Shown: positions 1,001 to 63,321 of the stretch, in pieces | Layout: the number at the start of each line of letters is the position of its first letter | Position numbering within the stretch: the first letter of the stretch is position 1 | Source of the DNA: Channa argus | Lineage: Eukaryota | DNA: 64,000 nucleotides | Assembly: GCF_033026475.1 (NCBI RefSeq) | Contig: NC_090210.1 | Coordinates: 20,319,376-20,383,375 of the forward strand | Direction of reading: 5' to 3' | Notes under the pieces: generated by a model | Databases searched by the model: none | Told to the model about the DNA's origin: nothing | The model's input: the letters and a program-made list of their open reading frames with translations, nothing else | Translations under genes and position numbers: made by a program

Positions 1001-1160
1001 GGATGGTGTCACAGTGCCAATGGGACCTGCGAAGAAGACAGGAGTGGGTAATAGCACCGGTTACTCCCTTCTATACAATGAGTACATCGTTTACAACCCG
1101 GCCCAGACTCGTATGAGATACCTGTTGCGAATCCAGTTCAACTACTCTTCACTGTGGTGA
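1001..1160 (+). CDS. parp2: PARP2 terminal coding exon, DGVTVPMGPAKKTGVGNSTGYSLLYNEYIVYNPAQTRMRYLLRIQFNYSSLW, ending at a TGA stop at 1158-1160.
   Basis: The C-terminus is almost identical to human PARP2 (...YTLNYNEYIVYNPNQVRMRYLLKVQFNFLQLW). It is closer to PARP2 than to PARP1 (...KLKFNFKTSLW). The acceptor is cttgctcag. Confidence 0.85.
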
Positions 1161-2261
1161 GGCTGCACAAAGACCACCGATTTAACGGGAATTGCTCTCA
1201 ACAAAGCAGGGTATAAATATCACTGAAAGATTGTTCACTCTCGGTATCTTAAACCTGAACATATTTCTGTCTCTGGGTGGATAATAGTCATTATTCGAGG
1301 CAAATTACCAAATTTATCTTGTTCCAGCTGCTCAGATTCTTTTTTGTTTATAACTGAATCTCATGTTGAACTGTCAGTAACATAAAACAAACACAGCCAT
1401 ACAGTCATGTCCACAGTGGACATTTGACATATCTAAAGCTTGTACTGATGCATTCAATAGACACATGAGTAAATATATAGATTAATCAAAACCCAAACAA
1501 AATTTCTACTCATTTTTCTAAAGTGGGTTTTCTGTCAGACCTCATTCAAATTTTCATTCATAATTTCTGAACGCTTGATTAGAAGTAGAGGGGGACCACA
1601 GATCACCTGTAGTGCTGCTGGAGTTTGAGAAATGTGAACAGTATGAAAAAAGTTTTCCAATTTTTTTCCATGTTTTTGTAAATTGGTAAAAGCTGCACTG
1701 CATTGTATGTTACATATTACATTCTGTGCTGTGTGTAAAACTAATGGTCTTATAAATTTATTGGATTATCACCATCCATCTTTAATGACATAGCCTATAT
1801 TTTTTAACTAGTTGAGGCAGGTTTGACATAAATTTATTCTGAATAAACCAGTTTCTTCAGGAATTTGCAATGTCGGGATCTCAACATTTTATTGAATACC
1901 TGGGAATTTTGTTCAACATTGCAATTTGAAGCACCGAAAAAAACAGAAAAGCTGTCACAAGTTCAGGCATTTTAAGTGGCAACAATTACAAAAAATGTCT
2001 GCAAAATCCTGGAGGGGTTGATAAATGCAAAATGAATGTATGAATGTTTTATTAGCAGGAGAAATCTAGACGTGAGATGTGTTTAGTTCAGTAAGCAAAC
2101 AGAATTCAAATGAATCCAAAAGAAATCAATTCAATACAAATGGTTAATTAAAGACAGGTTTTTGTAAAAACAATGATGTCACATTATATACATAATAATA
2201 AAGTACATTTTTACACCTCGGAGTGTCTGTCTGTGTGTCCATATATTCTGTGTCTACTGTT

Positions 2262-2396
2262 TCACCTCCTCCCCAACAGGGCAATGAAAATGAAGACTAT
2301 GTCCAGGTAGATCATGAGGGCAGCATAGATGTATTCCTCAGGATCCAGACGGTAACTCAGCATCCCCATTGTCATCTGGCAGTCGAATATCAGGTA
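2262..2396 (-). CDS. tmbim1: TMBIM1-like terminal exon, YLIFDCQMTMGMLSYRLDPEEYIYAALMIYLDIVFIFIALLGRR, then TGA.
   Basis: Matches the family C-terminal motif (…DTQLxxG…SPEEY…A.L.IYLDIINIF…). The acceptor is ctgtctgtctcag. Confidence 0.8.
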   Translation of the reverse strand, partial: YLIFDCQMTMGMLSYRLDPEEYIYAALMIYLDIVFIFIALLGRR

Positions 2397-2793
2397 CTGA
2401 GACAGACAGGGAAGGAGAGAAGGAGAAGATGATTTAGGACAGGGTGAGAAGTTACCACCAACTACTAGTAAATTGAAAACACAAGATTTTGATGGTGAAC
2501 CATTTCTGTGGCGGGAGTCAAATCAGGGCTCACGGAAGGCCACTACTGAATAGTCCAGTGGTGGGTTTAACTGTGTCCATATACGGTTGGAGGACAATTG
2601 ACCTGTGACCATGCTGTTTTTATTTGTTGTATCATCTTAAATACTATGTTTAATCGATTTCATTGTTCTCGTTCTATTACGTTTGTCAGTTTAGGTCAGT
2701 TAATTCACAGAAAATTGTGGGTTCTACTTTTTAGTGGAAGGACGCCAGCCGTTTTGTCCATGTCTGCATACAAGAGTGCCTTTTTTCCCTTAC

Positions 2794-2937
2794 CAGTGAA
2801 AACAGCAGTGCTCCCAGACATCCATAGACAATGTCAGTGAGGACAGAGTAGAAGAAGATGGAAAAGAACCCAAACATGATCAGGTCCACAGCCAAAGCCA
2901 GCGCGATTCCATAACAAAAGGTGAAATTATAGCGAGT
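2794..2937 (-). CDS. tmbim1: TMBIM1-like exon 4, TRYNFTFCYGIALALAVDLIMFGFFSIFFYSVLTDIVYGCLGALLFSL.
   Basis: Corresponds to TMBIM1 TKFDFTSCQG.... The acceptor is ttatttgcag and the donor is CTG|GTAAGG. Confidence 0.8.
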
Positions 2938-3652
2938 CTGCAAATAACACAGAAACACATTTGTGATTAATTTCATTATCCAAGTATGTTTATAAATCAG
3001 CAGGACAAAAGCCTAATTAAAGTAAATCTCTGAGAGGATTTATAAAACATTATCAATATAAACAGTATATGCATTTTACATTTAGCACCTGCACCCAGTG
3101 TGCAGTTTAGCAAAAATATTACATATAATTCTTATCCCCTATTTTTCTTATTCTGTTTTTCATTCTTAGATTTTTTTATACTTTGTTTCACACTATTTGC
3201 TACTGCAGATAGTTCAAGAACATGCACCTTACATTGTAACATCAATAATAAATGAACATGGGACATAAACGTTGAATAACGCTGTTTTCACTTTGAATTG
3301 TGTACAGTTACTAGTAATTTTGTTATTTAGTTAATTTGTTAAGTATTTTGTTTATTTATTAACAATTAAAATGTCTCCTTTCCCAGAGACTTTCTCCCAG
3401 TGCAAAAGGTGATGTAATTATTGTCCCGCTTTGCTCCATTAATGATCCAAAAAAATCTGGAAATTACAAAGACAACAACAGTTTCCACAGACAGTTAATA
3501 ACTAATTATTTTCAGTTGATACTATTTTCCAGCATCTCCAAAATGTATTGTTCTGAAGTCTGACACAGATTTTATTTGCAAGAACCGATGCTACAACTTG
3601 AGATTGCAGGTCCCTTCAATTAAAGCTCTTTGTCTCAGCTTCTTTATTTTAC

Positions 3653-3781
3653 CTGTGCAGAGAAAGCAATGATTGCAAGAGAAATGGCCACCGTTGCTCC
3701 CATAGTGACAATCACAGCGGAGGTGTTGTGGAAGGAGGCGATGGTTCCCGCCACGTATGACAAGCTCAGAGTCACAACAGC
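3653..3781 (-). CDS. tmbim1: TMBIM1-like exon 3, AVVTLSLSYVAGTIASFHNTSAVIVTMGATVAISLAIIAFSAQ.
   Basis: Hydrophobic TM segment ending in the family F-x-Q motif. The acceptor is gtattcag and the donor is CAG|GTAAAA. Phase 0. Confidence 0.8.
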
Positions 3782-4305
3782 CTGAATACACAAAAATCAT
3801 AATTTCAGCTAAAAGGATTTTTCCTCACTGGTATGTTATAAACCCACTCATTTTGGTTTAATTATAAATAATTCATCTTTACGACAAAATACTGGAAATC
3901 GTGGGGGTTTGCAAGCTGAGGAAGCTGAGGTTTGTTAGGAAACAACAAAAATGTTTTTTTATGGAGAAGCATGTCGCACGTGTTCAGTATTTTCACTTCC
4001 CTTTTGTATTTTGCTATTTTACTTCTCTTTCTAGGATGAGACTCTATGTGAACTGATGGTGTTTCTCATGAAATATCCAGTCTTTGCTATGTAATGAGAC
4101 TGAAATGCCTGTTAAATTGTTGGAGCTAAGTAAAGCTTTTGTCCCCAAGGAGCCATTTTGCTTACAGACAGCTGCTGAGAATAAAAATAAAATTCAGAAG
4201 GAATACAGTCATTGCAATAAATATTGGGTTATACTGATGTATATGTTAAAATGCATGATCTCTATTAGATATTTAAAGTTCTATGCTCCTGCATCGTTAA
4301 CCCAC

Positions 4306-4506
4306 CAGTCCAATAATGTTCCAGGGGTGACGACGACTGAAGGACTTGCAGAAGCTGAGGGCGATGGCGACCACAAGGAAGACGATGAAAGAGCTGAGGT
4401 AAGCCCACTGGTGTTTCTGCACTGCCTTTTTGACCACGCTGGAGAAGGTGAACACACACACCACACCAAAGGTGAACAACAGCTGGAGAGTCAGGATGCT
4501 GAAAAC
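4306..4506 (-). CDS. tmbim1: TMBIM1-like exon 2, VFSILTLQLLFTFGVVCVFTFSSVVKKAVQKHQWAYLSSFIVFLVVAIALSFCKSFSRRHPWNIIGL (transmembrane helices 1-2).
   Basis: Matches GRINA/FAIM2/TMBIM1 (…KVYSILxxQLLVT…FRRKHPWNLILL). The acceptor is tgtgcag and the donor is CTG|GTGGGT. It is in phase with exon 1. Confidence 0.85.
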
Positions 4507-4978
4507 CTGCACAAGGAACAAGAAAAGATCAGTTTATTAAAAGGAGTTTTTTTATCAAATAAGCTGGACTGTAAAGAGCGTGAGGCAAAATTTAAGATCT
4601 CATAGTTACATAATGGCTCAATAAAGTTTTAGTTTTCATAGATTTCAAGAGGTAAACAGTATTGACTTACTAAGCTGATCGAACACATCCCAGCATGCAA
4701 AACACTCGTTTAATCTCCAGATGCCAATACCTCAGCTTTGGCTATCAGGGTAACCAAGTAGTGATCTGAGTAAACAGTTTTTGTCTGGCACTGAAAACTG
4801 ACTTGTTTGCTGTCCGTCTCTATAAATCTGCACTCGCAAGAATCTGGAATGGTTACATTCACACATGAGCTTCATAAGGCCAGAATCAGCACAGATGGTT
4901 ATCCTGCGTATTTATTCACGTTTGACTCTGTGCATGCCGTGCGTTGATATACTTTGCACAGTGCATTAGTGAGAAAAA

Positions 4979-5137
4979 GAGAGGGCAGCAGTGGCTCAGC
5001 TCGTAGAGTGGCCACCTACTGACCACAGGGTCGGGGGTTCGTGCCCCGCTCCTTCCGACCACATGTTGAAGTGACCCCGGGCAAGACACTGAACCCCCAA
5101 GCCCATCCCCATCCCCAGCTGTGCAGTGTCGTTTTTT
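4979..5137 (+). mobile_element. tRNA-derived SINE, copy 1. It has an A-box-like TGGCTCAGCTCGTAGAG and a B-box GGTTCGTGCCCCG, and sits in TMBIM1-like intron 1. It is flanked by TAGTGAGAAAA target-site duplications.
   Basis: tRNA-like promoter boxes. A near-identical core (…gggcaagacactgaaccc…ccccagctgtgca…) recurs at 39268-39490. The direct repeats ttagtgagaaaa occur on both flanks (about 4966-4978 and 5138-5150). Confidence 0.7.
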
Positions 5138-5708
5138 AGTGAGAAAATAGTTTGTCTTCTGACCTCTCACCATCTCCAGCGTATGGTTATTATGGCCTTA
5201 CAACTACACACTGATTCTCTTGTAGAGACAAGCAAGCATTACATGCTTGCTTAGTTAAATCAAGGGGATTTATATTTTTTATAATTTTAGTTTGACCCCT
5301 AAAAACTTAACAATATCTATTTTGAGCTTTTTTAGTTTAAAATCTGGCATTTGTCCATGAGTCATTTATTTTTGCTCTCAGATTTATTTATTTCAATAAG
5401 TTTTAAAGGCCCCGGGAGGGAAAAGCCATTAATATACAGCACCAAGAATAAAATGTGGCAAAGTCCCTACATGCATTTTTTGCTTTCTTAATTTTCTTGC
5501 AGCTCCTTAGGAGGGTTTCACCCCTGCATGGGAGATTCTGGTGCAGGGTAACGTTTAATAAAACAATATTCCTGTCAAGACATGAACACACTTGATACTG
5601 CTTACCAGTAAACCAAACATATTTCATCATTTGTCATCAGTAAAGTCGACGTGCATTTTAGATGAATGCAGATATTACTTACACTTGGTGGGACAAGAGT
5701 GAACCAAC

Positions 5709-6008
5709 CTTTCTAATAAACCCTCTTCTCACAGCCAGGTCATCAAAAGAAGATGGGTCTGTTGTGGAAGTTGTCCGCAATGGGGCTTCTTGATTTATGC
5801 TGGCATAAGACTTACAACCAGTGCCAGGCTGAACGATGACTGTTGTCTCAGTTATGGGTGGAAAGTATGTTACTTGGGCTGCAGGGTAAGGTGGAAGTGG
5901 CTGTTCTTGATAGGAGTATGGTGGTGGTGGTGAGGACATATCAGAGCCGGGTGTGTGCTGTGTCTCTTTAGATGTGATCAGATGATCATGATCAGATGGA
6001 CCTGACAT
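5709..6008 (-). CDS. tmbim1: TMBIM1-like (Lifeguard/Bax-inhibitor family) coding exon 1. The ATG is at 6008-6006. It encodes MSGPSDHDHL...SSPPPPYSYQEQPLPPYPAAQ...DDLAVRRGFIRK. The donor is AAG|GTTGGT.
   Basis: Proline-rich N-terminus with PPxY motifs. It runs into the family signature R-x-FIRKV-(F/Y)SIL, which continues in the next exon. The ORF-track start at 6020 is a GTG codon; the first ATG is four codons further in. An acceptor at 6031 precedes the ATG (5'UTR). Confidence 0.8.
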
Positions 6009-9000
6009 TATGGAGGACACTGTGGACCAGAGAACAGTTTCAGTTAAAGCTCAGCTTATGCAAAAGGAAATGACACAGAACTTGGACTGCAAAGAACAAT
6101 CATTTTTAATATATAGGTTTTTGTGATGTATAGATTTTTAGGAAGATTGCTTGTTTTGCCAGATCAACAGCCAAACAGCCAAAGAATGTTTTTTGAATAC
6201 ATATAATAATAAGAAACTCTTCAGTCAAAAAGCATATTTGGAGATTTGCCTAAAAGTTAATTTGACTATTCACAAAGTTATACATTTTCTGTTAATTTGT
6301 TTGTATGAGACAGAATGTGAAGAACAGTCAATCTGTTACCCTCAACAGTCAATTTCCTGTCTGTCAAAATGTTCATTTTGTGAAACACTGGCATTTTTCA
6401 CAACCTGCCCATAGCAGCTACAGGTTTACTTTTTGTCACATGTAGATTGTTTAAGTCAACCACACTTGCTGCTGACTTGTTGCCCAAGAACAGCATAAAC
6501 ATTAGGAAGTAAAACCTGGGCCGTGGGGCCGCTTCTCCTAAATGAAGGTGGAATTTTCAACAATTGGAAACACAGCGATAAGTCAAAGTAATAAGAACAG
6601 CACGTCTTTCTCACAGCAGACTTTACCAGCAACACTGAACCTAAAGCAGCTAGTGAATTTCAGAAATTAATTTTATTGAAGAAGTCATCACACATTCATT
6701 TGGTTATTTACACATACAGCAACACATTTTTTGCGGCAAGATGTTACTGGCGTTATGTAGACATATTTAGTTTTAATAGAACATATTGGCTTTTGATCAA
6801 GAAGGATGCAAGGGTTTAGGGAGGTTGTGTGAAGACATATTACATCAGATAAAAGATATCATCCCTCTGCAACCTGCTTCTTTTTGTTTTTTTTTTAGAA
6901 AGTCAGTTTAAAATCTGATGCACCCATTTCAATGTGTGTTTTAATCTGGGCAAATGATTTGATGTCTCCCACATTGAGATTTTTTCGCTGCCAGAGATCT
7001 AAAAACTATAAAGCTAGAGTATCCACACTTATAGATAATAGTAGTGGTAAAAATATATATATTCCTTTGCGTTTTTAGTGAACAAATCTATTAGCACATA
7101 TTAACATAATGTCTTGGTATGGAGGTATGTTATATAACAAAGAAGAGGGTGATCTTACCTTTTCTGCTGGATTATACCTGTGTCAGAAAACCTCAACGGT
7201 TACACCAAAAAAAGCACTGAGTGTGTGCAGATAGGTGTTATTTATTCTAATGGCCTGTGGCTTATTGTTTCACTTCCTGACCATTTCAAATGATGAAAAA
7301 AAATCCTGTTAGTGAAAAACCTGCATTGTGTGGAAATGTGGAAACTTCACTGTTGCTTCATAGGCGTTACGTCGTCACACTGGGGTCAGTGGAAGTCTGC
7401 TGTATTCGAAACAGAATCCGACTGTCCTGACCTGATTACGGTGAAGCCATGATATACTGTATGTTATATTAACTGCACATATACTGTGGATGTAACCGAC
7501 ATTATCATTTAGTTGTTGCATAGATTGAAGAAAAAAATCCGTGTGCCTTTGGTGCCAAGCAGCAATTATATAATTAAAATACGAGTGTGCAGCCTGTTTC
7601 CAGACAGCTCAGTCTTTTCCCACATCTCAGATGTTGTGTCAAGCGAAAGTGGCAGGTCATTGTTATTCTCTTACAAAACAGATCTTGATATTACTAATAT
7701 GTCCTGATAAAGTGTAGCTAATACATTGTTCTTTACATGATTAGGTGCTTAGGAGTAATGCATTGAAGTAGTAATCATTATACACTCAGTTACCGGCATA
7801 TTAGGAACATCAGTTAAACCAAATCAGTCCCCCCATGGGCCTGTGCCATAAAAGAAATCTCAATATTAATGACAGCAATATAATTTTTAGTTATTCCCCA
7901 ATAACAATTGTTTTGTTATAAACAAATGAATTTGTGAAAATAGGCCAAATTGCACATCAACCTTTACACTTTACAAAAGATTTTGGTATTAATAAAGGTA
8001 AAGGAGCAAAAAATGCATATCACCTTTTACCGAGTAAAATAAAAAAAGTTAGGATGATGTTTGTAATTAACCAGATAATCTCATTGAGCTCAAAATTTAT
8101 TTTGCAAGAGACCTGAGAATAGGGTATATTTTGTTTGAAAAGTTGTCTTTCAAATATCACCCATGTTTCAAATCATGAACTGTCACAGCAGCCCTGACAT
8201 CCGGGTGGACATTCTGTAAAATATAAATATTATGTTTTCATCATTTATATCTACTCCCATATGGAACAACCCTGATTATGTCATCGATAAAAAAAAAACC
8301 CACTCCACTAGTGCAGTTGGGCAGAAAAGGGAATTACACATTCCAAACCTCTTTGAAAGTAACAGTATGATCCCATCCCCCAAATTGGTCCAACTAATCA
8401 CTTAACCATCACAAAAAGGGGAAAAGAGATTTATATACTACTCACAATGCCAACTTCTGTATTAAAATTTCCAAAAATATCTTATCAATGACCAAAAATG
8501 CTGACAACACATCATATAATTCTACTCAAAATACTCTGGATAACTATGTTCATGCTGTGACATTGCACATCCATGAGTAGTTTTTGGGAAGACATTACTC
8601 AATCCGTCTGCCTGGGCTGCCATATCCTCGCCCACTCTGCTTAGTAGACTTAATCAACCCTCTGTCTGAAGAATAAAAACCGTGATTTACCCGTAGTCAC
8701 TCTAAAGCCTAGAAAACCAGCCTCTGGGACTGGAGCTCATAAAACTCCATACATATTTCCTCAATGAAGAAAATTTATAGATTATCGCTCTGGAAAATGT
8801 ATCCACTCCCAGTCACAACAGACACAGAAAGCCTGATTGAGTCTTGACTCATAATATCTTTTCATCATTGTTGTTACTATTGTTATGAATGTATAATTTT
8901 TTTTTTAACCAAGTTATGCACAAAATGCCTATGAACACACACACTTTCAAACCTTTTGTGTCCATCATACAAAACTGTTTGCTTATTGAAATGTCACTTT

Positions 9001-10697
9001 GTTTGTCCTGCTCTGTACCTAGCATAAAATAAAAATAATAAAAATAAAACAAAAGAACTGTACAAACCCAAAATGCATTATGGAGACGTGAAAACACAAA
9101 ATGGACCTTCACAAAACATCTCTCACACATATTTATTGTAAAAAATACATATAAAAACAATTTCTGAGACATACAAAAGATTGGAGCTTAGAAACAGTAT
9201 ATTGAACAGACAAAGACCAAGCCATTTTTTTGAATTTCATTACATATTTACAATTTAATAAATAAAAATCAATTAGGTTTTTTTTTTTAAACCAGAGTAA
9301 AGGCAGATTGTCCATATCTTGGGGATGCAGATACCGCTGTGGTGTCTCTTTGAAAAACATTCTCATTGAACACATCGGTCTCCAAGCACAGAGCACACAG
9401 AGAATTGCTGCTCTGCGATTCAAGTCATTTATACAAAATACCATCCTTGGTTGGAGAAGCTACTTTACACGCACGTGTTTAGTTAGCATTGGTAAAAATT
9501 GAGGTATTGCACCACACAGCTTTGAGGGGGTTAGAAAGTAAATGAGGCCAATGGTGGGTTTCAGATTGTCTTATTTTTTTTTTATTTGACAACCAACCAC
9601 CACTATTACCTGCTCCCCTCAAACACCCCACCCTCCCAGCCAAAGTATACAATATCATAATTTATCACCACGACAAATGTAACACCTAAGGATCAATGCA
9701 CCTCGTCTTCCGCACTCTCACACAATGCCCCCAATGCGCAGACGGACTTTTGGCATTAGTTTTCTATTCTCCAATACAGAACAATGACAAACATGCACAG
9801 GGCTGCCCTCTAGTGGAGAAACATGTTGTAGCACCTCAGACTGCAGAACAACAGGGATCAGAGGAGAAACAAGAGACTGGAGTGAACAAACTAGCCAGTA
9901 AGAAACTTTTGCACAGGTCTTGCTTCTACGCTGTTCCGTAACACTGCAGGAAGGACAAGGTAACGCATGGAACAGATTTGCCTTTAGTAAAGGCAGCAAA
10001 AGCAATCCATTCATGTTTTTGTTCTTTTGCAGTTTCCCCTGGCCTGTGAACAACCTGTATCAGACAGCATCTGTTGAGCAGCCTTACTATTGGGCTATAA
10101 CCTCAGTTCTGCCATAAAAACACCACAAAATATCCGCTTGCACGACAACCCCTTCACCAGGCAAAGGCAATCAACACACAAAAAAGGCAAAGGAAAGCCA
10201 TTTAACACATTTAGCAATACTGTGGATTATAATGTGATGATATAGCATCTAACACTTTTTTTTTTAAAGGGCAAAAGGTTCAGGGCTTGCCATATAATAA
10301 CTAACCATTAGAACCATTGGCTGTCCATAGCCCCCAGTGATGGGGAAGAAAGGCAGATGCCACATGGTGTAAACATGCCCCCAATATACATCCCTTGCTC
10401 CGTGGGTCCCTTTATCCCCTCCCTGACTGGGGATTAATGCCACCAGATGGCAAAACTGTAACTTGGGGTTTGGTCCAAAAAAAGTCCGGATGACACCCCA
10501 GCGAATGTTTAACAGTGAGGAGGGGGACAAAAATCCAAACCGCATTTAAAGTGGGACCAATAGGAAGAAGTGCGCCGTGATGCTGCGTACCAATGCCACA
10601 GGATGTCTGCCAGCATGACTGTAGATAGAGAACAGTTTCTTGGATGTACAGCCATTTCCAGGAAATTTCCTGTCTCTTGTCATCACCAGAACATACA

Positions 10698-10737
10698 AAC
10701 ACACACACACACACACACACACAACGTCTGGGATAAC

Positions 10738-10772
<35 letters not shown>
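10698..10772. repeat. Inverted microsatellite pair: (AC)~13 at 10698-10723, a 14-nt spacer, (GT)~16 at 10737-10772, then a G-run gggtggggggg.
   Basis: Direct reading of the sequence. The two arms are perfect reverse complements, so together they form a potential hairpin of about 24 bp. The element lies in the presumed 3'UTR of the ZNRF-like gene. Confidence 0.9.
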
Positions 10773-10777
<5 letters not shown>

Positions 10778-12544
10778 GGGGAGAATCTGCCGCAAGGGAA
10801 GAAAAGTGCTGAAATTTGTGCCAACACCCACGCTCTTTTGGCCCTAAACACTACCAACTTTTTTCCTCAACACTCACCAAGTAGCAGCACATTTAACTCG
10901 GCATTAACCAACCACCTACCATAAACTGACCTACTCAGAAAAAGAAAATGAAAATAAAAAAAATCCCCCCTTAAAATTCCCCCTGAAATGTGTACAGGTA
11001 ATAGAAAACAGACAACACCTAGTAACGGCAGCCCCCATTCACCAAAAACAGGCCTCAACCTCCAGCTAGTTAAAAATAAAGCAATGTAACAGTTCGCGCT
11101 TTCAGTGTGAGGTTGGTTCATTTGGGTTAAGCCGAGGAAAGAAAACATTCATCCAATGTATGACTTGGAACAATACTTTTTGCAAAATACTTGATAAAAT
11201 GATCAATCCCATTTGGAGGGAAAAAAAAAATACACAGGAGAGGTTTCGGAGTGACTTTTCCTCCACATTCCTTCCCAAGTTCAGGATCCCTCTGGGGCGA
11301 GTTCCATCGTTTTGGGGTGATAATTATTATTTGACATTTTTGAATGTTGTGCAGATGCAAGCCAAGTCTGTAAAAAGACAGAAAACAGCTCCGCTTCTGT
11401 TCCAACACGGGTTTCGACCACAGATTAGATTTTTGTTTGAGTTTGGCTTGAAAAGGTCTAGAACAAGCCCAGATTGACTGATCCAAACTGAGGGTAGTGG
11501 GTGACACCAACTGTAGCTTCCTCTTAGGGTCGTCCACTCAAATACAGGCTTGCATCTGAGAGCGACAGTGAGATTTTGTTTGTTGAGTTACACATTTTTA
11601 TTGGGATTTTATTGGGATTCAGTGTAGTCTCCTGTAAGGGTGGAAAAAGAATTGTTATTAGACAAAGTAATGCACACTGTAACAACTGTACTAAAGTCTG
11701 CAACATGCCTGAGCAGTATGGATAAAATTGATTAACAAATGAAAATTCAGTGTATAAATACATCTAAATGTCTGATAGACAGGGGATGCATATATGCTTC
11801 AGTGTATATACAGTGCCCCTCATGAAAATAAGAATAAGTGAAAACAGATAACATTTAGCAGATCCAACAATGCCCATCCAAGCTAAATGTGTATTGTTAT
11901 GATTTAAAGTTTGCACCCCCCCCCTCCATTTAAATGGCTTCGAAGGGTATTCAAACTTTACCCTAAACCCAACATAACAATGCATATTCAGCTAGTTCAA
12001 ATGTTCTTTTTTTTTCATCATCATCAGTAGTAAAAAAAACAATTGTGTAAAAATTAGATATGGGAACACATTTAAATTAGTTACTTAACTCACTTTGAGC
12101 ATGATTTAAAAGTGGCAACTTCCAATAGGAAAGTAAAAACTTTTATAGACATTGAACAGTATCCATCTGCATTTGAAGATTATTTAAAATTTTGTTCCCT
12201 GCATACAGTTTCTGTGCGGACTTAAAAGTATTATTTCAAACAGGGACTGTTAATTTAGATGAGAGGTATATAAGATAACACAACATCTTGGTATCTGCAT
12301 GTATCGTCGATTCAAAGCTGACAAGCACCACAGATATAAGTCTGCTGGGTTTGTTATGGAAAAATTGAGCACTATTGACAATGAGCTACTGAACTGACAC
12401 TGTGCCATATTCTAATTTAACTCAGCTTCATCTTATTAGTAGCACTGCTGTGGCCAGTGTTGGAACTGAAACTGCATATCCTGGTCATTTGGTAAAGTCT
12501 TACACATACACACCTGAGTCGGTTTGGTCACTGTGACCCGTTTG

Positions 12545-12602
12545 TCAGTTGAAGGGATGTTCAGGGCAGCAGGGCTTTACCTTGGACCAAGAATCAATGC
12601 AG
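12545..12602 (-). CDS. znrf: ZNRF-like terminal exon, (S)CIDSWSKVKPCCPEHPFN, then TGA. It completes the RING-H2 finger.
   Basis: Same length and ligand pattern as the ZNRF1 C-terminus SCIDSWFEVNRSCPEHPAD. The acceptor is ttctccctgtag. Phase matches the upstream exon (AG + C). Confidence 0.7.
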
Positions 12603-13825
12603 CTACAGGGAGAACAAACATAGTGGTGAGGATGCAAAAATATTACATTTAGTTAAAATGTAGTGTAGGTTTTTTAGATATTCCATAATTTGTTTTGGAA
12701 AACTGGGCATTTTATTTCAAAGACAGAATGACAGCCAACACCATTTACTCTCATGTTTTAACCATAGTTACTAAGTTGCAGTGTCTCAACTGTGAACATC
12801 TGCTACTATTTCTCTCCCTTTTGTGATATAGCACGGCTGGATTTTTGAATCATTGATCAAACAAAAGAAGCTATGTGAATCTGTCACATTGAGCTTTGGG
12901 AAACTGTGATAATAATACAGGGTACAAAGAATAGAGATACTTGTAGTTCTAGATTTTTATTTTGCCTTTAAAAGTTTGGGACTTTTTTTCTTGCCAAGTC
13001 TCAGCTCAACTGGGTGGATTAAATGTTAATTTAATTTGTTAGACAACAACCACACCTACAACCTATGGAGCAAAACTGAAAGCCTTCAAGATCAAAATGA
13101 AAGACAGACACACAGTTGACTGACTGCTGACTAAACCCAAAATAATGACAAAAGGTAGTCATTAAAAATAGCAGGCAGGATCTTGACTATAACTGACGCA
13201 CTTATCTTTGTCAGTTTCAAGTCTCTGCAAGTTAATTACAGTAAACCAAAGCTGCATGGAAGTTGGAGAAACAAAAACCCTAAACGTGGCGTGAAAACAT
13301 TTGGAGATTACAGCATGCTCTTAAAATGAGAAATGACTGGCACATGATCGGTAGTAAATGGGCTGAAACACACACAAACACTGGTGGCACTTTAACACCT
13401 TCATTCCCTTGCAAATATATCCTTTCAAAAAGACCAGTAGATCGGCAACTATGTGCAATTACAATATAAATGCAACTGTTTTTACAGTTGTGAAACTTCA
13501 TTTAGCAAAATAAAGTGTTACAAGGTCAGAAATACAATACTATTGTTCTTTTGATAGGTAATCAACTGGCTCACTGACTGGCGCTGTGACTCTTTAATCA
13601 CAGGTTTAGGATAATGATTCTTAATTACAATGCCTCAGGCAAACAGTTATGAACATTTCATTGGAATAAACAACAAGTTTTGTTTCCTTATTTTCTGAAA
13701 CCTTTTTCATGTCTGGAAATTGGAAAATACGAATTTTTTTTTAAATACACATTTTTCACTCATCTTAACTTTTCAATATTCCAGTATTTTATTAAAATGC
13801 AAATACATCAACTGAAGTGTTTCAC

Positions 13826-13931
13826 CTCTTATGGTAGACACAGAGGCAAGCCAGCCTCGCAATGGTCTCTCCTTGTACCAGATCCTCCAAACAGATGGAG
13901 CATTCTCCGCTGTCTTTACTGAGCACGTCCG
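13826..13931 (-). CDS. znrf: ZNRF-like exon 3, (T)DVLSKDSGECSICLEDLVQGETIARLACLCVYHK(S), the RING-H2 core.
   Basis: Near-identical to ZNRF1/2 DVLTKDAGECVICLEELLQGDTIARLPCLCIYHK. The acceptor is gtttacag and the donor is AG|GTGAAA. Confidence 0.8.
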
Positions 13932-14018
13932 CTGTAAACACAAACACCGAACAACCACAAGCTTTTACAGCCTATTCAAAACTCAACCGCCGGGGCTTTT
14001 CTGTTATATGACACTTAC

Positions 14019-14114
14019 TATTGTAAGGTAGGGGAGGAGATGTGAGGCAGCTCAACAGGTGATCCTCAATCCGACCCCCAGGGAAAGGCTTTGAGCAGAA
14101 AGGACAGCGGATAT
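14019..14114 (-). CDS. znrf: ZNRF-like exon 2, (N)IRCPFCSKPFPGGRIEDHLLSCLTSPPLPYN, a C2HC zinc finger (C-x2-C…H-x3-C). An alternative acceptor at 14135 would add MQSLLCTD.
   Basis: Matches the ZNRF1 zinc finger FKCPICSKSVASDEMEMHFIMCLSKPRLSYN. The donor is A|GTAAGT. Phase is consistent with exon 1 (it ends with one extra base). Confidence 0.7.
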
Positions 14115-15288
14115 CTGTACAGAGCAGAGATTGCACTGTTGTGTAAGAGATATAAATAAAAGATAAATGTTCACATCACAATGAGCACAAATACCATGTA
14201 TGGATATTTAGATTGCACGCTCAAGACCAGAACGAAACCCACTCTGTCAGCATAAAGGCTAATGATTGACGTTACCTTAGGTTTAATTGACTCCCGAGTA
14301 GTTTGAAGCTTTATCTGGCTTTTATGCACAATGCAAAACAGCAACTCCAGTCTGACTCTTTCATGGATGGGGACAGAAAACAGTGCCACGCTGCCCTAAA
14401 TTCTCCTCATTCTATGAGCGGCTGCCAACAGATAGCAGGCATGTGGAGTTGTGACCCATTTCCCCACACTTGCTAGAGGGCTGGCCTGGGAAAGCCACCA
14501 CACTTGTGTTTTGGCTGTGTGTAAATCTAATTTGTTATGCAGTGCACGGATTATGCATTTTCACTTCCCATTTGCACTTCTACCAACAGTGCGAAAAGGT
14601 GGTTGGTTGCTTAAGGCTTTTAACTTGCACGCTGCAGGATCTACCATTGACAGCGGCTGTAAACATTCATTGGGACATGACAGAGCCTACATGTCACCAC
14701 TTCTAGTTTTACACCATAGGTCTGCGTCATACAATAGGGTCTCTGATGATTTTAGTCAGCATGCAAGCACGAGAATGGGGATCATCTGTTCAGGAATGCG
14801 AATTCCTCAAATAATCCATTTTAATTTCGGACTAATAGACTGAGGGTTGCATTGGGAGAAATGAGGCAAAATTCACGTTGTGATGAAAGACTTAATGCCT
14901 GAACACCTTCCCGAGCCGTAAGGCTTAGTTCACTTCAATGCTTTATAGATTTATTTTACTATCATGGTGACCATCAGTAAGACAGTGCTGCTTTTTCACC
15001 CTTGGGTTAAACATCAGCTGACTTATTAAAATATAAAGTCATTCCCCGAATTTCGTAACAGTTCGATGTTGAGGTATTGCGTAATGCAATTGTGCAGACA
15101 TGGCCCAGCTCTAGCACCATGACTTTCATGCAACTTGTTATAAATGACATTCCCGTACATGAGCCGACGTCTAAAACCAAGCAGACCACAAACCAAAGAT
15201 GCAGACGTGTGTCACACGGTTATTTCTGTACCACCAATAATGGCAGTGACATGTGTGATAAATGCTGCTGCGCTGTATGGTAACTTAC

Positions 15289-15814
15289 TGGCATGGCGGT
15301 TATTGACACGGTAGAGGCCGATCCAAGCTTCTGACACCGGCCGCTGGTGTGTGCCTCGGACCCGGGCGGATCTTGCGCCAACGCTGCGGGCGGAAGAGTG
15401 TCGATTCCCGGGCAGCCGCTCGGAAAAAGTGCGGTGTGGTGTGCGGCCCGTCTCCTCTCCCGGCTGATGTTCAGCGTCAGCGGTAGCCCCCGGGCTAATA
15501 TTCCCGTCTTCCTCGGGTTTCCCCTCGCTGTTGTTGTCGTCCGCAGGGGAAGCTTGGCTACTGCCAGAGGGCATGCTGTGGTGGTCAGCGGGGGTACCGT
15601 CGGCGCTCGCCCCGTGCTGCCCCAGGTCCGAGTCGCTTCCCTCCTCGGATCTGCTCCTGTTGGCCTCCGTGTCCTCGAAGCTCCCCGAGAAGTCGACCAT
15701 GAGACTGGTGGGCCTGGTACAGCGGGTTCGCCGATAGGAATCCCGCTTTGTGCCCTCTTTTCCAAAAGCAGAGGGCACCGGGTCTTCCTGTAGGCGGCTT
15801 GCTCTCGTCCCCAT
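15289..15814 (-). CDS. znrf: ZNRF-like exon 1. The ATG is at 15814 with a good Kozak context (agagATGG). It encodes MGTRASRLQEDP… followed by about 170 aa of S/D/E/R/G-rich low-complexity sequence. The donor is CCA|GTAAGT at 15288.
   Basis: It fits the N-myristoylation consensus M-G-x-x-x-S, as in ZNRF1 (MGGKQS) and ZNRF2 (MGAKQS). It ends in a consensus donor, and downstream exons encode the ZNRF zinc finger and RING. It lies in a CpG island, so the overlapping ORFs on other frames are ignored. Confidence 0.65.
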
Positions 15815-16846
15815 CTCTAGCAGGAGCTAATCCAGCTGGCTAACCGAGCTGCTGCTTCCTCAATGCGAACCACCAGAGAACAAGGGGACGAGATACGCTC
15901 CGAAACGCGTGTTAAACAGACAGATATTCGGCTGTGAACTCCAATTAACAACAGCTGTCCGGAAACGGGCTTCGCCGAAGATAATATGTCGTTCAATGGT
16001 CTTTCTCCGTCCTCAAACTGTAATTTCGATGCACATTTTCCTTCCCTTTTCAACGCACCCGTTCTCGTTGCTGCAGCGGAAGTGAAGCATTTTAGCTTCC
16101 TCTTTTGAGCCGTACACAAACAGTTACGGTAACGTCACTCTGCCGGTTTTTTTTTTCATTTAAAATTAAACTCTTAAAATAAAGATATTCCAATAAAACA
16201 ACACTTATTTCCGCAGTAGTTTTACAGATAATATTTTATTGATTAGAAAACGCTGTAGAAGAACTCATGCTAATTTCTTAAATAAAAGTGCAGTACTTGT
16301 GCAAAAGCCTGCTTCAGTTCCAATTCTGTGCTTACTAAGTACATGCTTTAAATTTCCAATAAGTGCATAAGTACTCTGTTAGGAAAACCGATTTCTCCCG
16401 GTGGACATCAATGTGACTGGATTACTTATCAAAAATTTATTTATTTGATAAATTATTGAACTTGGTGTGGGTGATAAAACAAATGTACACGTTTAGACAA
16501 TATTTGTTTTACATGCGATTTAAATACTTAACAAGCCAAGGCAGTTAAATGTCCTAATATATTTTTTCATTATATTAATTATTATTATCATTATTGGTAC
16601 GTTAATTATTATAATATGCTTGCAGTACTTATGCATGCAAAGCAGGGAAGTGGCAATAACGAAAATAAAGAAAAATTTCAGCCTCACCCAGGCGCCCGTA
16701 TGTGTTATATTACGGCGAAAAGTACAAACGTATTGACCAATCAGAGCGCTCCAGTCTGAGGCCAAGTTGTTGTATGAGGAAGTAAAAACTGAAGTGAATC
16801 CACACTTGGCTCAACAGAGCTTTCAAAACAGAAGCTAAATTGAAAG
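15815..16846. promoter_or_regulatory. CpG-island divergent promoter region. The ZNRF-like TSS and 5'UTR lie at about 15815-16130 on the - strand. A TEP1 non-coding first exon lies at about 16760-16846 on the + strand, with a GTAACG donor at 16847. A CCAAT box (gaccaatcagagcg, NF-Y type) is at 16735-16748.
   Basis: High CpG density across 15300-16130. The CCAAT box sits about 25-100 bp upstream of the putative + strand exon. No other coding sequence lies between the two divergent genes. Confidence 0.5.
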
Positions 16847-21000: not shown

Positions 21001-24000
21001 ACTATTGTTAAAGAAATGTGATCAGTGGTTTGTCACTTACGGGCAAAAAGATGTGTAAAGGGATGTGAACATAGTCTTTACTCTTTAGATAGCAGGATTA
21101 TAGAAAAACAGCCAAATGAATATGGAGGAAAAAGAGGTTGGGTTGGATTCAGTCTCAGAGCACTAGTTCCAGTGCTTCAATTTTAAAATGGAGTGTGGTT
21201 GGGTTTATTGCAGGTATCCTGCTGACCAGGAGACATTCACCCACAGTGGACTGAAGGGTGTGTGGGACAGGGAACGAGCCGGACAGAGAATGAAGGTCAA
21301 GGAGCCAGAGACATGGTATCGACTGCTTAGTCTGGAGGGCAACAAGGCTGCCACCTGGGAGAAACTCATAGGTGTGAGGTCCCAAAGTGTTGCCTTTAAT
21401 TTATCCAGTAACATATGACTGAACACCAGTATTTGCCTACGCTGTTTTTCATCAGTTTTTAATATTTAAAAATCAAATTCAGATCACGGGTTCTTGCCAG
21501 AGTAGTATAAGTGCTGTACCACCAAGTCTGAGTGCATGACACTGGAGAGTCAGTCCAACGTTTTGAAGTCAAAATTTCTCAATACTTAATTCCAATACTT
21601 AGGTGAATATAACACTTAAAATTCTTATGCACATCAAGTTCCACACACGTGTTATACAAGCCCAGAAGAGCATGCGTGCATTATAAACTTCAAATATACA
21701 TATACTCAAAGGCAAACGATTTCCATGATGATTTAATGCCTCTAATGTGCAGACAGAGAGTCTCTTCCATTCATGGTCATGCTGAGGAATCTGAGGAACA
21801 TGATCACTAAAGGAGTCAGTGAGGCTCATCACAAGAAGGTCCTCGGCAGACTGACCAATGAGGTGAGTTTCCTTATTTATTAAATTATTACTTAAAAATG
21901 ACAAACAGAAGAAGAGATGGCAGACAGAAGAAAATACACTGTTCAAATATGTCATATTTTGTGCCATTAAAAAACAAAGTCATATTTGTATTTTGTAGTC
22001 TCTTACAGCAGAATTTATTAAGTTCTCCGTGACGGCCTGGTTGTTGTGTTCTTACAGAAAGAAGTTATTCAGAGTCGACAGCTTCCCTTCAGATTCCTCG
22101 CTGCCTACAAAGTCATCATGGAGCTTCAAGATGCATGTACAGTACTGTGCAAAAGCTTAATTCATTATTACATACGTGATTATGTTTTATCAATCATTCT
22201 CAGTTTTTAAGATTTCAGGGTAGATTGTTCTAAGCATTTGGAGGAATTTGTGGCTGTCTCAGTGTTTTCTGTGTCTTCATATAATGCCTGACGGTCTTTA
22301 AGATGTTGAGATGGGGACCATACCATTTTGCTGCCATTGAATATCGTTGGGTATAGCTCTGGGTTTGGGGTTGTTTTCATGCTGCAGAACAAGTTTTTGA
22401 TTAATCAGGTTCATCACAAACTACTGTATGTATAATCACTACAGTACATAACACCAATATGCATAAAGTGGCACTAAAAACACTACCTGGAATTTGTATT
22501 AATAAACTTCAGCTTGGTAGCCAGTTTTTCAGCAGGGATAAGAGTGTTTCATGCAAACCTTGAACGAAGTGAACATTTTAGAAATGGGGCAACTGGGACC
22601 CTGCAGTGAAGTCCAGCATTCTCTATGGCCAATAACAGATGAGTATAAAGCTCTGGGGTGAAAGCAGGCCCTTCAAAATCTGAGAACATGGTACCTTAAT
22701 GAAAATTGATGGAATGCTTCCCTCAGATTGGCAGTGAGTTACTGCCCTAAGTAAAGAAGTATCATGTGGCTCCTGTTCAAAAGTGAGAGTAGATTGGAGT
22801 GTGACTTGACAGGTGGATTGGTGCAAATGCAGCTGCCATCCACTATCAGTGAAAAGCCAGCTTTGCTACCCTGTAGCCCTCACAGAGCCAATCTGGATCA
22901 CTGGAAACCAAAGGGTGTAATGACAGTTGATGAGCTGATTGTCATGTCTTTAAACACATTATGCAACATCAAGTACCAGGACAGAAAAAAAAAACTAATT
23001 GTAAAAACAAATCTGTGTGTTTGTGTCTCTACACTACCTCACCCAATACTACAATGTCTTCAGGGCCCAGCTGCCACCAAAACCTGTACCCGTATACGTG
23101 AATGCATTCTTATAGTAAACAGGGGGCTTTCAGTTTACTCGTCATTCTTTGTGGTAAACCTTAACACTAGCCATGGGCTTTGGCTAATACACCTTTCCTT
23201 AAATTAGCAAATATTCTAATAGTTTTTAGACAGATATCATAAGATCATGTCAAAGTATGTCAGGTAATTGACTTTTAATTTTTTGTCAGTGTACAACAGA
23301 ACACATACTGTATAGCACCTCCTTTTTTTCTTGTCTCTTAGTGTCTGCAACAAAGCAGGAAATCCCGTCTGTTAAAGAGCTTCTGAAGGGCATTCTGAAG
23401 AAGGTTCCTAAGGGCCGACGCTTTCGTCGTGTGCAATGGGAGACGACCAAAAGGAGGAGGGTGAGGGTGACCCTTGGAGTGCCGTTTATCTATCGAGCGT
23501 ACCAAATGAAGAAGGCAAAGCTCCAAAAGGCCAGGTAAGAGTGTATTTATACAGTGTGTTTCAAAGAAAATCTTTCTGGCGCAGTGCTGTTATGTTATGA
23601 GCAGCACAGCAGTTGTGCAGTGATGTATAGGTAGAAAAGAAGCGATCAAATTGTGTGTAACCGTTTCTGTGTCCGTACAACCAGTAAACGGCCGTACACA
23701 GATGATCTACTGGACCATTACCGTAAAGCTCTGGAGACAGCGGTTCAGATCTCCTCTCGGCACAACGTGCCCCGACTGCCTGGAAGCACCGTTATCATGT
23801 TCTATGCTCCAATGAGGACCAAGTGCACAAAATCAGACTTTTGCCTCCCACCAGACCCTGAAGAAGATAACAAGAAGGATGAGGAAGAAGAAAAGGATGA
23901 GGAGAGCAGAAAGAATAAAAGGGAAAAGCTTATTCCTTATGTAAGGGCCTGTGTTTTTCTGATTAGCATTAACACAAGGAAGGCGGAATCAGGTCCAAAA

Positions 24001-27000
24001 ACAATCAACCAAGCTTATTTATGGAGCCATTTTTATATTTTCTCAGATGACAGAAGTGGCCGTTTTGCTTTCCCTGATGATTGCCAGTCGAGCTGAGGAT
24101 TGTCAGCTCTGTGTAAATCGTTGGCATGATGTTGAAGAAATCAAGCCGAAGTCTGACAACCTTTTGGAAAATGTCAGATGTGTTGTGAAAGACATTATGG
24201 TGAGTTTTTTTAAACAGCATTTTTTTGTCTTCTAACACAAAGTGCGTTTAATTCTTTTTTTGTTAGTTGATGCATTTGTATTCAGCCCCACTTTACTCTG
24301 AAACCCCTAACTCAAACTCAGTGGAACGAATTGCTTTCAGAAGTCACCTAATTAGTAAACCGAGTCCACCTGTGTGTAATTTAATCTCAGTATAAATACA
24401 GCTGTTCTGTGAAGCCGTCAGAGGTTTGTTAGAGAACATCAGTGAACAAACAGCATGAAATCCAAGGAAAACAGCAGACAGGTCAGAAATAAAGTTGTGG
24501 GAAAGTTTAAAGCAGGATTAGGTTATAAAAAAATATCCCAAGCGTTGAACATCTCATGGAGCACGGTACAATCTTTCATCTGAAAAAGGAAAGAGTGCGG
24601 CACAACTGCAAACCTACAAAGACATGGTCGTCCACTTAAACCGACACGCTTGGGGACGGACAGCTTTAATCAGAGAAGCAGCAAAGAGGCCCATGGTAAC
24701 TCTGAAGGAGAGTTTGTTCACAGGACAACTATTAGTTGTGCACTCCACAAATCTGGCCTTTATGGAAGAGTGGCAAGAGCAAAGCCCTTGTAGTAAGAAA
24801 GTCAGAAGAAGACCCCATAAGCCATGTGGGGGACACAACAATCATGTAGAAGAAGGTGCTCTGGTGAGATGAAGCCAAAATTAAACTTTTTGTCCTAAAT
24901 ACAAAACGTTGTGTGGCTGAAACCTAACACTGCACGTCACCCTGAACATACACTATCCCCATGGTGGAGCCAAATACAGGACAATCTTAGAAAAAAGCTT
25001 GTTTTAGACTGGGGAGGAGATTCACCTTCCAGCAGGAGAACAACCATAAACTTGCAGCCAGAGCTACAATAGAATGGTTTAGATCAAAGCATACTCATGT
25101 GTTAGAATGGCCCAGTCAAAGTCCAGACCTAAATACAATTTAGAATCTGTGGCAAGACTTAAAAATTGCTGTTCACAGACACTGTCCATCCAGTCTGACT
25201 GAGCTGGAGCTATTTTGCAAAGAAGAATGGGCAAAAACTTCACTCTCTAGATGTACAAAGCTGATAGAGACATACCCCAAAAAGACTTGCTGTAATTGAA
25301 GCAAAATGTGGTTCTACAAAGTATTGACTCAGGGGGGCTGAATACAAATGCACACCACACTATTCAGATATTTATTTGTAAAAAGAATTAAAAAACATTT
25401 CTCATTTTCCTTTCAATTCACAATTACGCACCACTTTGTGTTGGTCTATCATGTAAATCCTAATAAAATAAATTTCCATTTGTGGTTGTAACGTGACAGA
25501 ATGTGGAAAATCTCACGGGGTGTGAATACTTTTGAGAGGCACTGTAACTACACTGCACAGTGACAATGTGCTAAGGAGGGACACAACAATATTATAACTT
25601 AAAAATCAGATGAGATTTCTATTCTGTTGCTCACTGAATTTATATTAATGAATGTTTCTCTTTAACAGGCATATTCAAAGACATCAGATGAATATGATCA
25701 CACCAAATCCTTGTTCAGAATATTGACCAGGAAAAACAAGGTTTGTTTATGTGTATAGTTTTTACACCGTTTTCTTCCTTAAGATTCAAGATTCAAAAAA
25801 TTTTATTGGTACCATAGGGAAATTGTGTTGCCCTGTTACAGCTGCTCTTCACGTGAAAAGTAGAAAACAAAGGAAAAAACTTCTACCAAACCAGGACAAT
25901 AAACAAGTACAAATACAAACTACTGTTAAATTAAGTAAGAAAAAAACCCATCTAGAAGAGTAAATGTAAATTAAATAAAAACAAATTCTATTTGTCCATC
26001 TGGTCCCCCTTTTTACAGAAGGGGAATGAGTTGAACAGTTTAATGGCCACTGGGAGAAAGCATCTCCTGTGTTGTTCTGTGAAGCACTTGACTGTGATCA
26101 GTCTCTGGCTGAAGTCTCAGGTCTGCAGTCGCTGGGGACACTGGGGCGGGCCACTTTCGGTACTGGCACCTGGCGTGATGTTTTCCATCCCACAGGCACC
26201 CTCTCCAGCTGCAGGCTCAGTTTGAAGGTGTGCTTAAGGATCCCACATAGCTGTAGGGCACAGACTTTCAGTAGTCTGGGGCTGACTCTATCAGGACCTG
26301 CAGCGTTTGTGGTGCGAAGCCTGCATAGCTCTCTCTGAGCTCTATTTTATTTTTTACCATTCAGCTACTCTAGTCCTAATAAAGGGACCAAAAACCAACC
26401 AATCAGTAGAAGCTCGGTATAAGCAATGGGTATATCTAGGTAAATGAAGGCACAAAGAACCTGTATGTAATCACCTGGAAACACTTTTTTTTTCTGTATT
26501 ATAACCGTGACTGAGAACTGTATAAATTAAAACTACAGATGACTACCTAATTTTATCGTAATATCTGTTTACATCACTATTAACGTAACCCTTTTATAAT
26601 GTTATTGCAAAAAAGATTAAACCTATTACTTGTTATTACCAATGTCTTCCCCTACTATTATGTTGCTGTTACCAAGCAATAAATTGCTGCCATAAAATGT
26701 AAGTGGACTTATTATCTGTCTTTGACAGTTTTTGGAAGCAGGTTAACAAATTTTAACTGTATAATGACAGATGTCAGGAAGTTGCTTTTTCTTTTTCAAG
26801 AACTTTTTTTTTATTCGTGGTTTCTTTTTTTTTGATTGTTGATCTTTTGGATCTTAGGTAGACAACATCATTGTGATCACTGAAGGATTCATAGTTCGAG
26901 ACGTAAAGTGGGCCATCGACAGCTATGTGAGAGAAGTTAACAACAAAGCCCTTGTAATGCAGCTTTTCTTGGCAGATTCCTGGTAATGTTTTAATTGTAT

Positions 27001-50124: not shown

Positions 50125-63321
<13,197 letters not shown>

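Follow-up and report, generated by a model that had tools for sequence, protein, structure and literature searches.

The DNA analysed here, which we call the window, is a 64,000-nt stretch of the Channa argus genome (assembly GCF_033026475.1, contig NC_090210.1, forward-strand positions 20,319,376 to 20,383,375; coordinates below count from its first nucleotide). Its minus strand carries a gene with four coding exons, reconstructed from open reading frames (ORFs) and exons, whose product combines a zinc finger with a RING domain. We are confident that this is an intact, expressed, single-copy gene for a third, ancient paralogue in the ZNRF1/ZNRF2 family of membrane-associated RING ubiquitin ligases (E3s), and we refer to this paralogue as clade 3. 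Zebrafish-derived naming suggests the symbol zgc:66427. The coding part of the gene is laid out as follows:

15289-15814, minus strand: coding exon 1, 526 nt, ending in phase 1; it encodes residues 1-175 and the first base of codon 176, with the MGTRASR myristoylation motif at 15814-15794, the conserved N-terminal motifs RPTSLMVDFSGSFE, SRSEEGSDSD, RTFSERLPGNRHSS, and RPVSEAWIGLYRVNNRH, and a GTAAGT donor that begins at 15288.

14019-14114, minus strand: coding exon 2, 96 nt, phase 1 to 1, with an AG acceptor and a GTAAGT donor; it holds the C2HC zinc finger (C179-x2-C182-x11-H194-x3-C198, at about 14106-14047).

13826-13931, minus strand: coding exon 3, 106 nt, phase 1 to 2; it encodes the first part of the RING (C218, C221, C236, C238, H241) and residues E217, I220, L222, and E223, which are expected to contact the ubiquitin-conjugating enzyme (E2).

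12514-12602, minus strand: exon 4, with 58 nt of coding sequence (CDS) at 12602-12545, including the TGA stop at 12547-12545, and then 31 nt of 3' untranslated region (UTR) up to a GT donor at 12513; it encodes the end of the RING (C244, W248, C255, P256, H258).

The predicted product has 261 amino acids, the coding region spans 3.3 kb, and every intron is GT...AG, with phases 1/1/2. The ATG at 15814 is the first one past an in-frame stop four codons 5' (the stop-to-stop ORF starts at 15826). The same four-coding-exon structure is found in the genomes of Anabas, Scomber, gar, and bowfin. An earlier reading of the window by a model that saw only its letters and ORFs (the original prediction) had the same four exons, and these are present, but it ended exon 1 at 15288. 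That position is already the first base of the GT donor, and a junction placed there destroys the frame; the exon ends at 15289.

Several full-length homologues in the protein database come from contigs of only 1-2 kb, and we retrieved three of these, which are mRNA contigs of related fish from three sequencing runs: L004 (SRR25788543), and L005 and L006 (SRR14563177 and SRR14563181). Each of the three carries the ORF without introns, and when they are aligned to the window, the alignment blocks end at the predicted junctions 15289|14114, 14019|13931, and 13826|12602. Therefore, these contigs are spliced mRNAs of related species. For example, nt 22-783 of L004 align without gaps to window positions 16041-15286, and nt 781-876 align to 14114-14019 at 96.9% identity. 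The original prediction had proposed that its splice junctions be checked against transcripts, and in these contigs the predicted coding exons are indeed joined.

The C-terminal 87 residues of the protein are about 64% identical to the solved C-terminal domain of human ZNRF1 (PDB chain 5ywr_B; E = 8.9e-34, query residues 174-260 against chain residues 2-88). Pfam's zf-RING_2 matches with 30.7 bits, against a cutoff of 27.3, and the Anabas orthologue is labelled "mRING-CH-C4HC2H_ZNRF domain-containing protein" by NCBI. These matches, together with the architecture and the exon phases, agree with the original assignment to the ZNRF1/2 family, with E3 activity predicted by homology. The C2HC finger that was predicted is also present: its spacing (C-x2-C-x11-H-x3-C) equals that of ZNRF1/2 and its four ligands are invariant. 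The RING had been described as RING-H2, but its ligand pattern is C4HC2H (C218-x2-C221-x14-C236-x-C238-x2-H241-x2-C244-x10-C255-x2-H258), ending in CPEH.

The N-terminus begins with MGTRASR, which matches the PROSITE-type N-myristoylation pattern at G2 (G-{EDRKHPFYW}-x2-[STAGCN]-{P}), as had been proposed; lipidation is predicted from this pattern. In alignments of 21 and 34 ray-finned fish species, gar and bowfin included, M1 and G2 never vary and S6 almost never does. The original prediction described the rest of the N-terminus as acidic, serine-rich, low-complexity sequence. This is accurate for residues 40-122 (acidic and Ser-rich, pI 4.05) but not for residues 1-39, which are basic, or for residues 123-175, which are very basic (pI 12). 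Nor is the N-terminus featureless, as several islands (RPTSL, SRSEEGSDSD, RTFSERLP, RHSS, and RPVSEAWIGLYRV) are invariant across ray-finned fishes. It also contains conserved basophilic RxxS sites (S37, S56, S131, S141, and S161) and an acidic SxxE/D cluster. We ran AlphaFold2 on the 34-sequence alignment, with the alignment of the Anabas orthologue standing in for that of the window protein. The resulting model has a mean pLDDT of 47 and a pTM of 0.19, with pLDDT below 50 over the N-terminal 175 residues.

Orthologues are found throughout the ray-finned fishes: the best full-length homologues reach E = 3e-165, and identity to the window protein is 95% in Anabas, 92% in Scomber, about 80% in salmon and pike, about 73% in cyprinids, 59% in bowfin, and 56% in gar. 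From gar and bowfin to percomorphs, the residues that the original prediction called divergent (FPGGRIEDHLLSCL and SKVKPCCPEHPF) vary little or not at all. More broadly, there is little or no variation in PFPGGRIEDHLLSCL of the finger or in SW-S/C-KVKPCCPEHPF, with which the RING ends, and all twelve zinc ligands (four in the finger and eight in the RING) are invariant. We also estimated the ratio of non-synonymous to synonymous divergence (dN/dS) by the Nei-Gojobori method, with CDSs rebuilt from genomic sequence for Anabas, Scomber, and gar and taken from two of the related-fish mRNAs. The window gene gives values of 0.083 with Anabas, 0.072 with Scomber, 0.082 and 0.103 with the two mRNAs, and 0.15 with gar, for which synonymous sites are saturated. 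The ratio is 0-0.06 for residues 158-261 and, among percomorphs, 0.09-0.16 for the N-terminus. Between the window and Anabas, there are zero non-synonymous changes over the 104 C-terminal codons, with a dS of 0.25. So, the entire protein is under strong purifying selection.

These data bear on the interpretation given by the original prediction, which was that the gene is either a fast-evolving teleost paralogue or one that is becoming a pseudogene. In its favor, the finger spacer and the last segment of the RING differ from those of ZNRF1/2 at many positions, and a long stem branch lies below clade 3 in the tree that is described below. However, the differences are fixed from gar and bowfin to percomorphs, and dN/dS values of 0.07-0.10 overall and 0-0.06 in the finger and RING rule out fast evolution or pseudogenization. 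The gene has an intact ORF and canonical splice sites, dN/dS stays within 0.07-0.15 across all of the comparisons, the relatives have spliced mRNAs, and the promoter lies in a CpG island (see below). The gene is also not confined to teleosts, as holosteans, sturgeon, bichir, lungfish, and coelacanth carry it too. We consider this interpretation to be very unlikely.

To place the gene within the family, we compared its C-terminal 104 residues with 1.84 billion cluster representatives in an exhaustive HMMER scan. The neopterygian (teleost and holostean) group collapses to one representative (P0015, 227 bits), and the next full-length matches score about 137 bits and below. We sorted the best 150 matches by the RING tail and then looked up their names. 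The clade-3 signature was found in sturgeon (P0124), bichir/reedfish (P0127), lungfish (P0126), and coelacanth (P0138/P0272). All of the others among these 150 are canonical vertebrate ZNRF1 (SWFE[VI]NRSCPEH), canonical ZNRF2 (DEWFEVNRSCPEH), or invertebrate proteins. Some sequences with odd residues after the RING tryptophan (P0208, P0204, P0207, and others) were considered as shark or tetrapod members of clade 3, and they turned out to be sponge, nematode, or unnamed metagenomic sequences. When we searched with the lungfish clade-3 protein, the amphibian matches were all canonical ZNRF1 or ZNRF2. Overall, no tetrapod, shark, or cyclostome member was detected, within the limits of clustering and of the word index, so this is not proof of absence. 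Clade 3 is probably an ancient third ZNRF gene that was kept in bony fishes, and it was not detected in tetrapods.

Canonical genes coexist with clade 3 in the same species. Anoplopoma has a canonical znrf1 (P0141) besides its clade-3 protein (P0042), Protopterus has ZNRF1 (P0288) besides P0126, Stigmatopora has znrf1 (P0300) besides P0008, and Scleropages has a znrf2-like protein (P0166) besides P0056. The alligator gar (Atractosteus) has a separate canonical ZNRF2 (P0144). In a neighbor-joining (NJ) tree of the finger-RING domain (86 columns, 45 sequences, and 500 bootstraps, with our own NJ implementation), the three clades have bootstrap values of 93% (clade 3), 94% (ZNRF1), and 95% (ZNRF2). 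Clade 3 groups with ZNRF1 in 3% of replicates and never with ZNRF2 (0%). Branching within clade 3 follows the species tree, with lungfish and coelacanth as the sister group of the ray-finned fishes.

The genomic context also differs. The canonical znrf1 of the pipefish Stigmatopora nigra (L007) is a gene of about 21 kb that lies between an LDHD-like gene (identified by FAD_binding_4 and FAD-oxidase_C) and a GINS3-like gene. This znrf1 has coding exons of 403/96/106/58 nt in phases 1/1/2, and its junctions lie at residues that are homologous to those in clade 3. Thus the match in architecture and exon phases to ZNRF1/2 that the original prediction reported is real, at least for znrf1, while orthology is excluded, and its proposal of a separate paralogue is upheld by the clade, by the canonical genes in the same species, and by the neighborhood.

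Could the gene nevertheless be a canonical znrf1 or znrf2, with its odd residues arising from wrongly chosen splice sites? Its orthologues do carry ZNRF1 or ZNRF2 names in NCBI and UniProt. But the junctions are verified by the mRNA contigs, and more than 100 species have annotated proteins with these residues. As for membership in the ZNRF1 group, besides the 3% bootstrap, SWFE[VI]NRSCPEHP is absent, there is no LDHD neighbor (the clade-3 locus has TEP1-like and Bax1-I genes in place of the LDHD-like and GINS3-like genes), and a separate znrf1 with WFE[VI]NRSCPEH is present in the same species. As for the ZNRF2 group, besides the 0% bootstrap, KGCIDEWFEVNRSCPEHPSD is absent, and Atractosteus and Scleropages have a separate ZNRF2. 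The divergent residues are not splice artefacts, and the case that the original prediction had raised against itself (a canonical best match combined with a mis-chosen splice site) does not hold. We regard this explanation as extremely improbable, even more so than a decaying teleost duplicate.

The surroundings of the clade-3 gene are conserved. The window is collinear with the Anabas locus, where the order is PARP (WWE/WGR/PARP_reg/PARP), Bax1-I, the clade-3 gene, and, about 250 bp away, a divergently transcribed gene for a protein of 2603 amino acids. Bax1-I and the TEP1-like gene flank the clade-3 gene in Scomber as well, where our 10-kb flanks stop short of PARP. The neighbors in the window are:

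~16083 to beyond 31100, plus strand: TEP1-like gene, placed by collinearity with Anabas, with ORFs at 23653-24096 and 31076-31420.

~1107-6082, minus strand: downstream neighbors, conserved with Anabas.

In Anabas, about 250 bp separate the znrf ATG from the annotated 5' end of the TEP1-like gene, which by collinearity would fall at about 16083 in the window. The window exons of this large, divergently transcribed neighbor have a weak TROVE match and a P-loop (GGPGEGKT), consistent with TEP1. One of the downstream neighbors is a Bax1-I (TMBIM/GRINA-like) gene, whose N-terminal exon at 5679-6020 is rich in proline; the other, at 1107-1164, is the terminal part of a PARP gene and carries WGR and PARP_reg domains.

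In human, PARP2 lies next to TEP1 at 14q11.2. We take the PARP-TEP1 neighborhood of clade 3 to correspond to this region, which is presumably the partner, in a paralogon from the two rounds of vertebrate genome duplication (2R), of the ZNRF1-bearing 16q. The gene quartets that 14q11.2 and 16q share include TOX3/TOX4, SALL1/SALL2, NDRG4/NDRG2, and CHD9/CHD8. We propose, with about even confidence for and against, that clade 3 is a third vertebrate ZNRF ohnologue that predates the divergence of bony fishes, and that tetrapods lost it while ray-finned fishes, coelacanth, and lungfish kept it. In that case, its invariant and clade-specific finger surface would point to a ubiquitination pathway that is found only in fishes and has its own substrates.

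The transcripts extend the gene beyond its coding exons. L004 reads ...CCGACTCAG|GAGACTACAC, which matches window positions 12514|11631 and shows a fifth, non-coding exon, and nt 1069-2190 of this contig align to window positions 11634-10436. The non-coding parts of the gene and its associated features are:

15815-16041, minus strand: 5' UTR, contiguous with exon 1; a minimum extent, from the L004 alignment.

11632-12513, minus strand: intron 4, 882 nt, GT...AG, within the 3' UTR.

9110-11631, minus strand: exon 5, non-coding 3' UTR of about 2.5 kb; its 3' end is approximate, with AATAAA at 9137-9132.

10699-10771: (AC)12 and (TG)16 microsatellites, inside the 3' UTR exon.

15200-16300, no strand: CpG island that covers exon 1, the 5' UTR, and the head-to-head interval shared with the TEP1-like gene.

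The stop codon lies 31 nt from the junction with intron 4, which is too short for nonsense-mediated decay. Exon 5 can be aligned down to 9062 in Anabas and 9109 in Scomber. Its distal 500 nt (9602-9109) are 78% identical to Scomber despite a dS of 0.56, which suggests constrained regulatory sequence in this part of the 3' UTR. We do not claim constraint on the intron and 3' UTR blocks that align with Anabas, as their 76% identity is about neutral at a dS of about 0.31; only the distal 3' UTR, compared with Scomber, is above the neutral expectation. The CpG island has a GC content of 0.525 and an observed/expected CpG ratio of 1.0, against a window background of 0.396 and 0.39, and its composition and position make it a probable bidirectional promoter. 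The 5' ends of the znrf and TEP1-like genes lie about 50-250 bp apart within it, an arrangement that likewise suggests such a promoter.

Elsewhere in the window, the ORF at 56738-57397 (minus strand) contains a kinesin motor-domain exon (Pfam Kinesin, E = 9.7e-19), presumably KIF5-like to judge from its motif. The ORF at 32471-32884 (plus strand) has no Pfam match; its C-terminal half (…RLRWFGHVQRRD…) appears similar to the tail of a fish retrotransposon-derived sequence. An Rfam scan of the entire window gave no match.

How might the clade-3 protein work? ZNRF2 is tethered to membranes by N-myristoylation, UBE2N co-purifies with it, and its partner binding requires the UBZ-type finger (PMC4889327, PMC4657170). 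Three serines of ZNRF2 (Ser19, Ser82, and Ser145) regulate 14-3-3 binding and membrane release: 14-3-3 binds via Ser19 and Ser82, and the protein leaves membranes once Ser19 and Ser145 are phosphorylated (PMC4889327). In ZNRF1, Glu183, Leu188, and Glu189 form a network of salt bridges and hydrogen bonds with Arg14, Lys10, and Arg6 of Ube2N, which leads to nanomolar affinity (PMC5941314). The equivalents of these ZNRF1 residues in clade 3 (E217, L222, and E223) are invariant or nearly so, and there is no variation at the canonical E2-facing residues I220, W248, and P256.

By homology to ZNRF1 and ZNRF2, a myristoylated Gly2 would anchor the clade-3 protein to endosomal, lysosomal, or plasma membranes, and the C4HC2H RING would recruit UBE2N with a UEV partner and, more weakly, E2s of the UBE2D type. 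The recruited E2s would then ubiquitinate membrane-proximal substrates. The surface of the UBZ-like C2HC finger and its flanks that is invariant in this clade and specific to it (PFPGGRIEDHLLSCLTSPPLPY and SW-S/C-KVKPCC) probably sets a specificity for partners or substrates that differs from that of ZNRF1/2. Finally, the RxxS sites S37, S56, S131, S141, and S161 and the acidic SxxE/D cluster are candidate phospho-switches, which would control 14-3-3 binding or membrane release as in ZNRF2.

Several observations weigh against our reading of the gene or against parts of it. First, the transcript support consists of spliced mRNAs from related fish and not from Channa argus itself. Second, with just 86 columns, the NJ tree leaves the deep relationships among the clades unsettled. 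Third, the N-termini of the three ZNRF clades align convincingly only at MG and at a short motif that precedes the finger. Site-by-site homology of the phosphosites with those of ZNRF2 is therefore not established, and we infer the proposals about phosphosites, 14-3-3, and substrate specificity from motif conservation. Fourth, the low pLDDT of the N-terminus is consistent with disorder, and the predicted model is too poor for structural comparison. Fifth, in a search of the literature on zgc 66427 or a third ZNRF paralogue, we found no paper that treats the gene as separate. Sixth, the phenylalanine that follows the RING tryptophan, which is kept in nearly all of the other ZNRFs that we sampled, is S, C, N, or Y in clade 3.

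The last point raises the question of catalysis. Besides the loss of this phenylalanine, the proline of RLPCLC is replaced by alanine in neopterygian members of clade 3, and judging from these two changes, there is a small chance that catalysis is altered or lost. An extreme version is that clade 3 is a conserved but catalytically inert pseudo-E3, which would act as a membrane scaffold or as a dominant-negative regulator of ZNRF1/2. An extra cysteine (Cys254) beside the ligand C255 could be taken as a further sign of this. However, the eight RING ligands and the four finger ligands are invariant, the E2-facing residues (I220, W248, P256, E217, L222, and E223) are also kept, and an E2 surface this strictly conserved would be difficult to account for if the protein bound no E2. 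A pseudo-E3 therefore seems unlikely, although it is less far-fetched than a decaying duplicate or a canonical gene with wrongly chosen splice sites, and we favor a membrane-associated E3 that belongs to a third ZNRF clade.

The gene is already annotated in many fish genomes, but inconsistently: it is called ZNRF1, ZNRF2, RNF6, or "uncharacterized." Among clade-3 orthologues, the choice between ZNRF1, ZNRF2, and uncharacterized appears to be random, and these names are probably annotation errors. The reedfish (Erpetoichthys calabaricus) protein P0127, which lacks the CPFC half of the finger, is named "RNF6." Mislabelled orthologues can mislead the orthology-based transfer of ZNRF1 and ZNRF2 functions to fish models, and the functions at risk include Wallerian degeneration, the regulation of mTORC1 and V-ATPase, and the turnover of Na+/K+-ATPase. 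A third paralogue also bears on the design of znrf1 and znrf2 knockouts in zebrafish and medaka because of possible redundancy. And clade 3 provides a natural finger-RING variant for asking what sets substrate and E2 specificity. Beyond this, the interest of the gene is evolutionary and annotational; it does not point to a new class of biology.

Among known systems, one comparison is with the single-copy ZNRFs of invertebrates (Trichuris, and arthropod proteins named "ZNRF1/2-like"), which have the same finger-plus-RING module. The nematode-type KVK after the RING tryptophan (SWFKVKNSCPEH) resembles the KVKP of clade 3. However, nearly all of the invertebrate ZNRFs that we sampled retain the phenylalanine after this tryptophan and the proline of RLPCLC, unlike clade 3, and there is no supported grouping of the two in the NJ tree.

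ZNRF2 shares with clade 3 the domain plan, the myristoyl anchor, and a disordered N-terminus with basophilic serine sites. Clade 3 lacks the ZNRF2 signature (KGCIDEWFEVNRSCPEHPSD and FKCPVCSKF), and it grouped with ZNRF2 in none of the bootstrap replicates.

A further comparison is with ZNRF1 (the family of human Q8ND25, with PDB structure 5ywr). Clade 3 forms its own clade, its N-terminus is unrelated, and its neighbors are TEP1-like and Bax1-I genes instead of LDHD. The Y103 site of ZNRF1 (PMC4657170) has no evident counterpart in clade 3. The signatures also differ: CPFC...PFPGGRIEDHLLSCLTSPPLPY and SW[S/C]KVKPCCPEHPF in clade 3 versus CP[IV]C...SVASDEMEMHFIMCLSKPRLSY and SWFEVNRSCPEHP in ZNRF1. 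Still, the two have in common the MGxxxS motif, a disordered N-terminus, the C2HC finger, and the C4HC2H RING; the sizes of the coding exons past exon 1 and all of the phases are identical; and the residues of ZNRF1 that contact Ube2N (Glu183, Leu188, and Glu189) are shared by clade 3.

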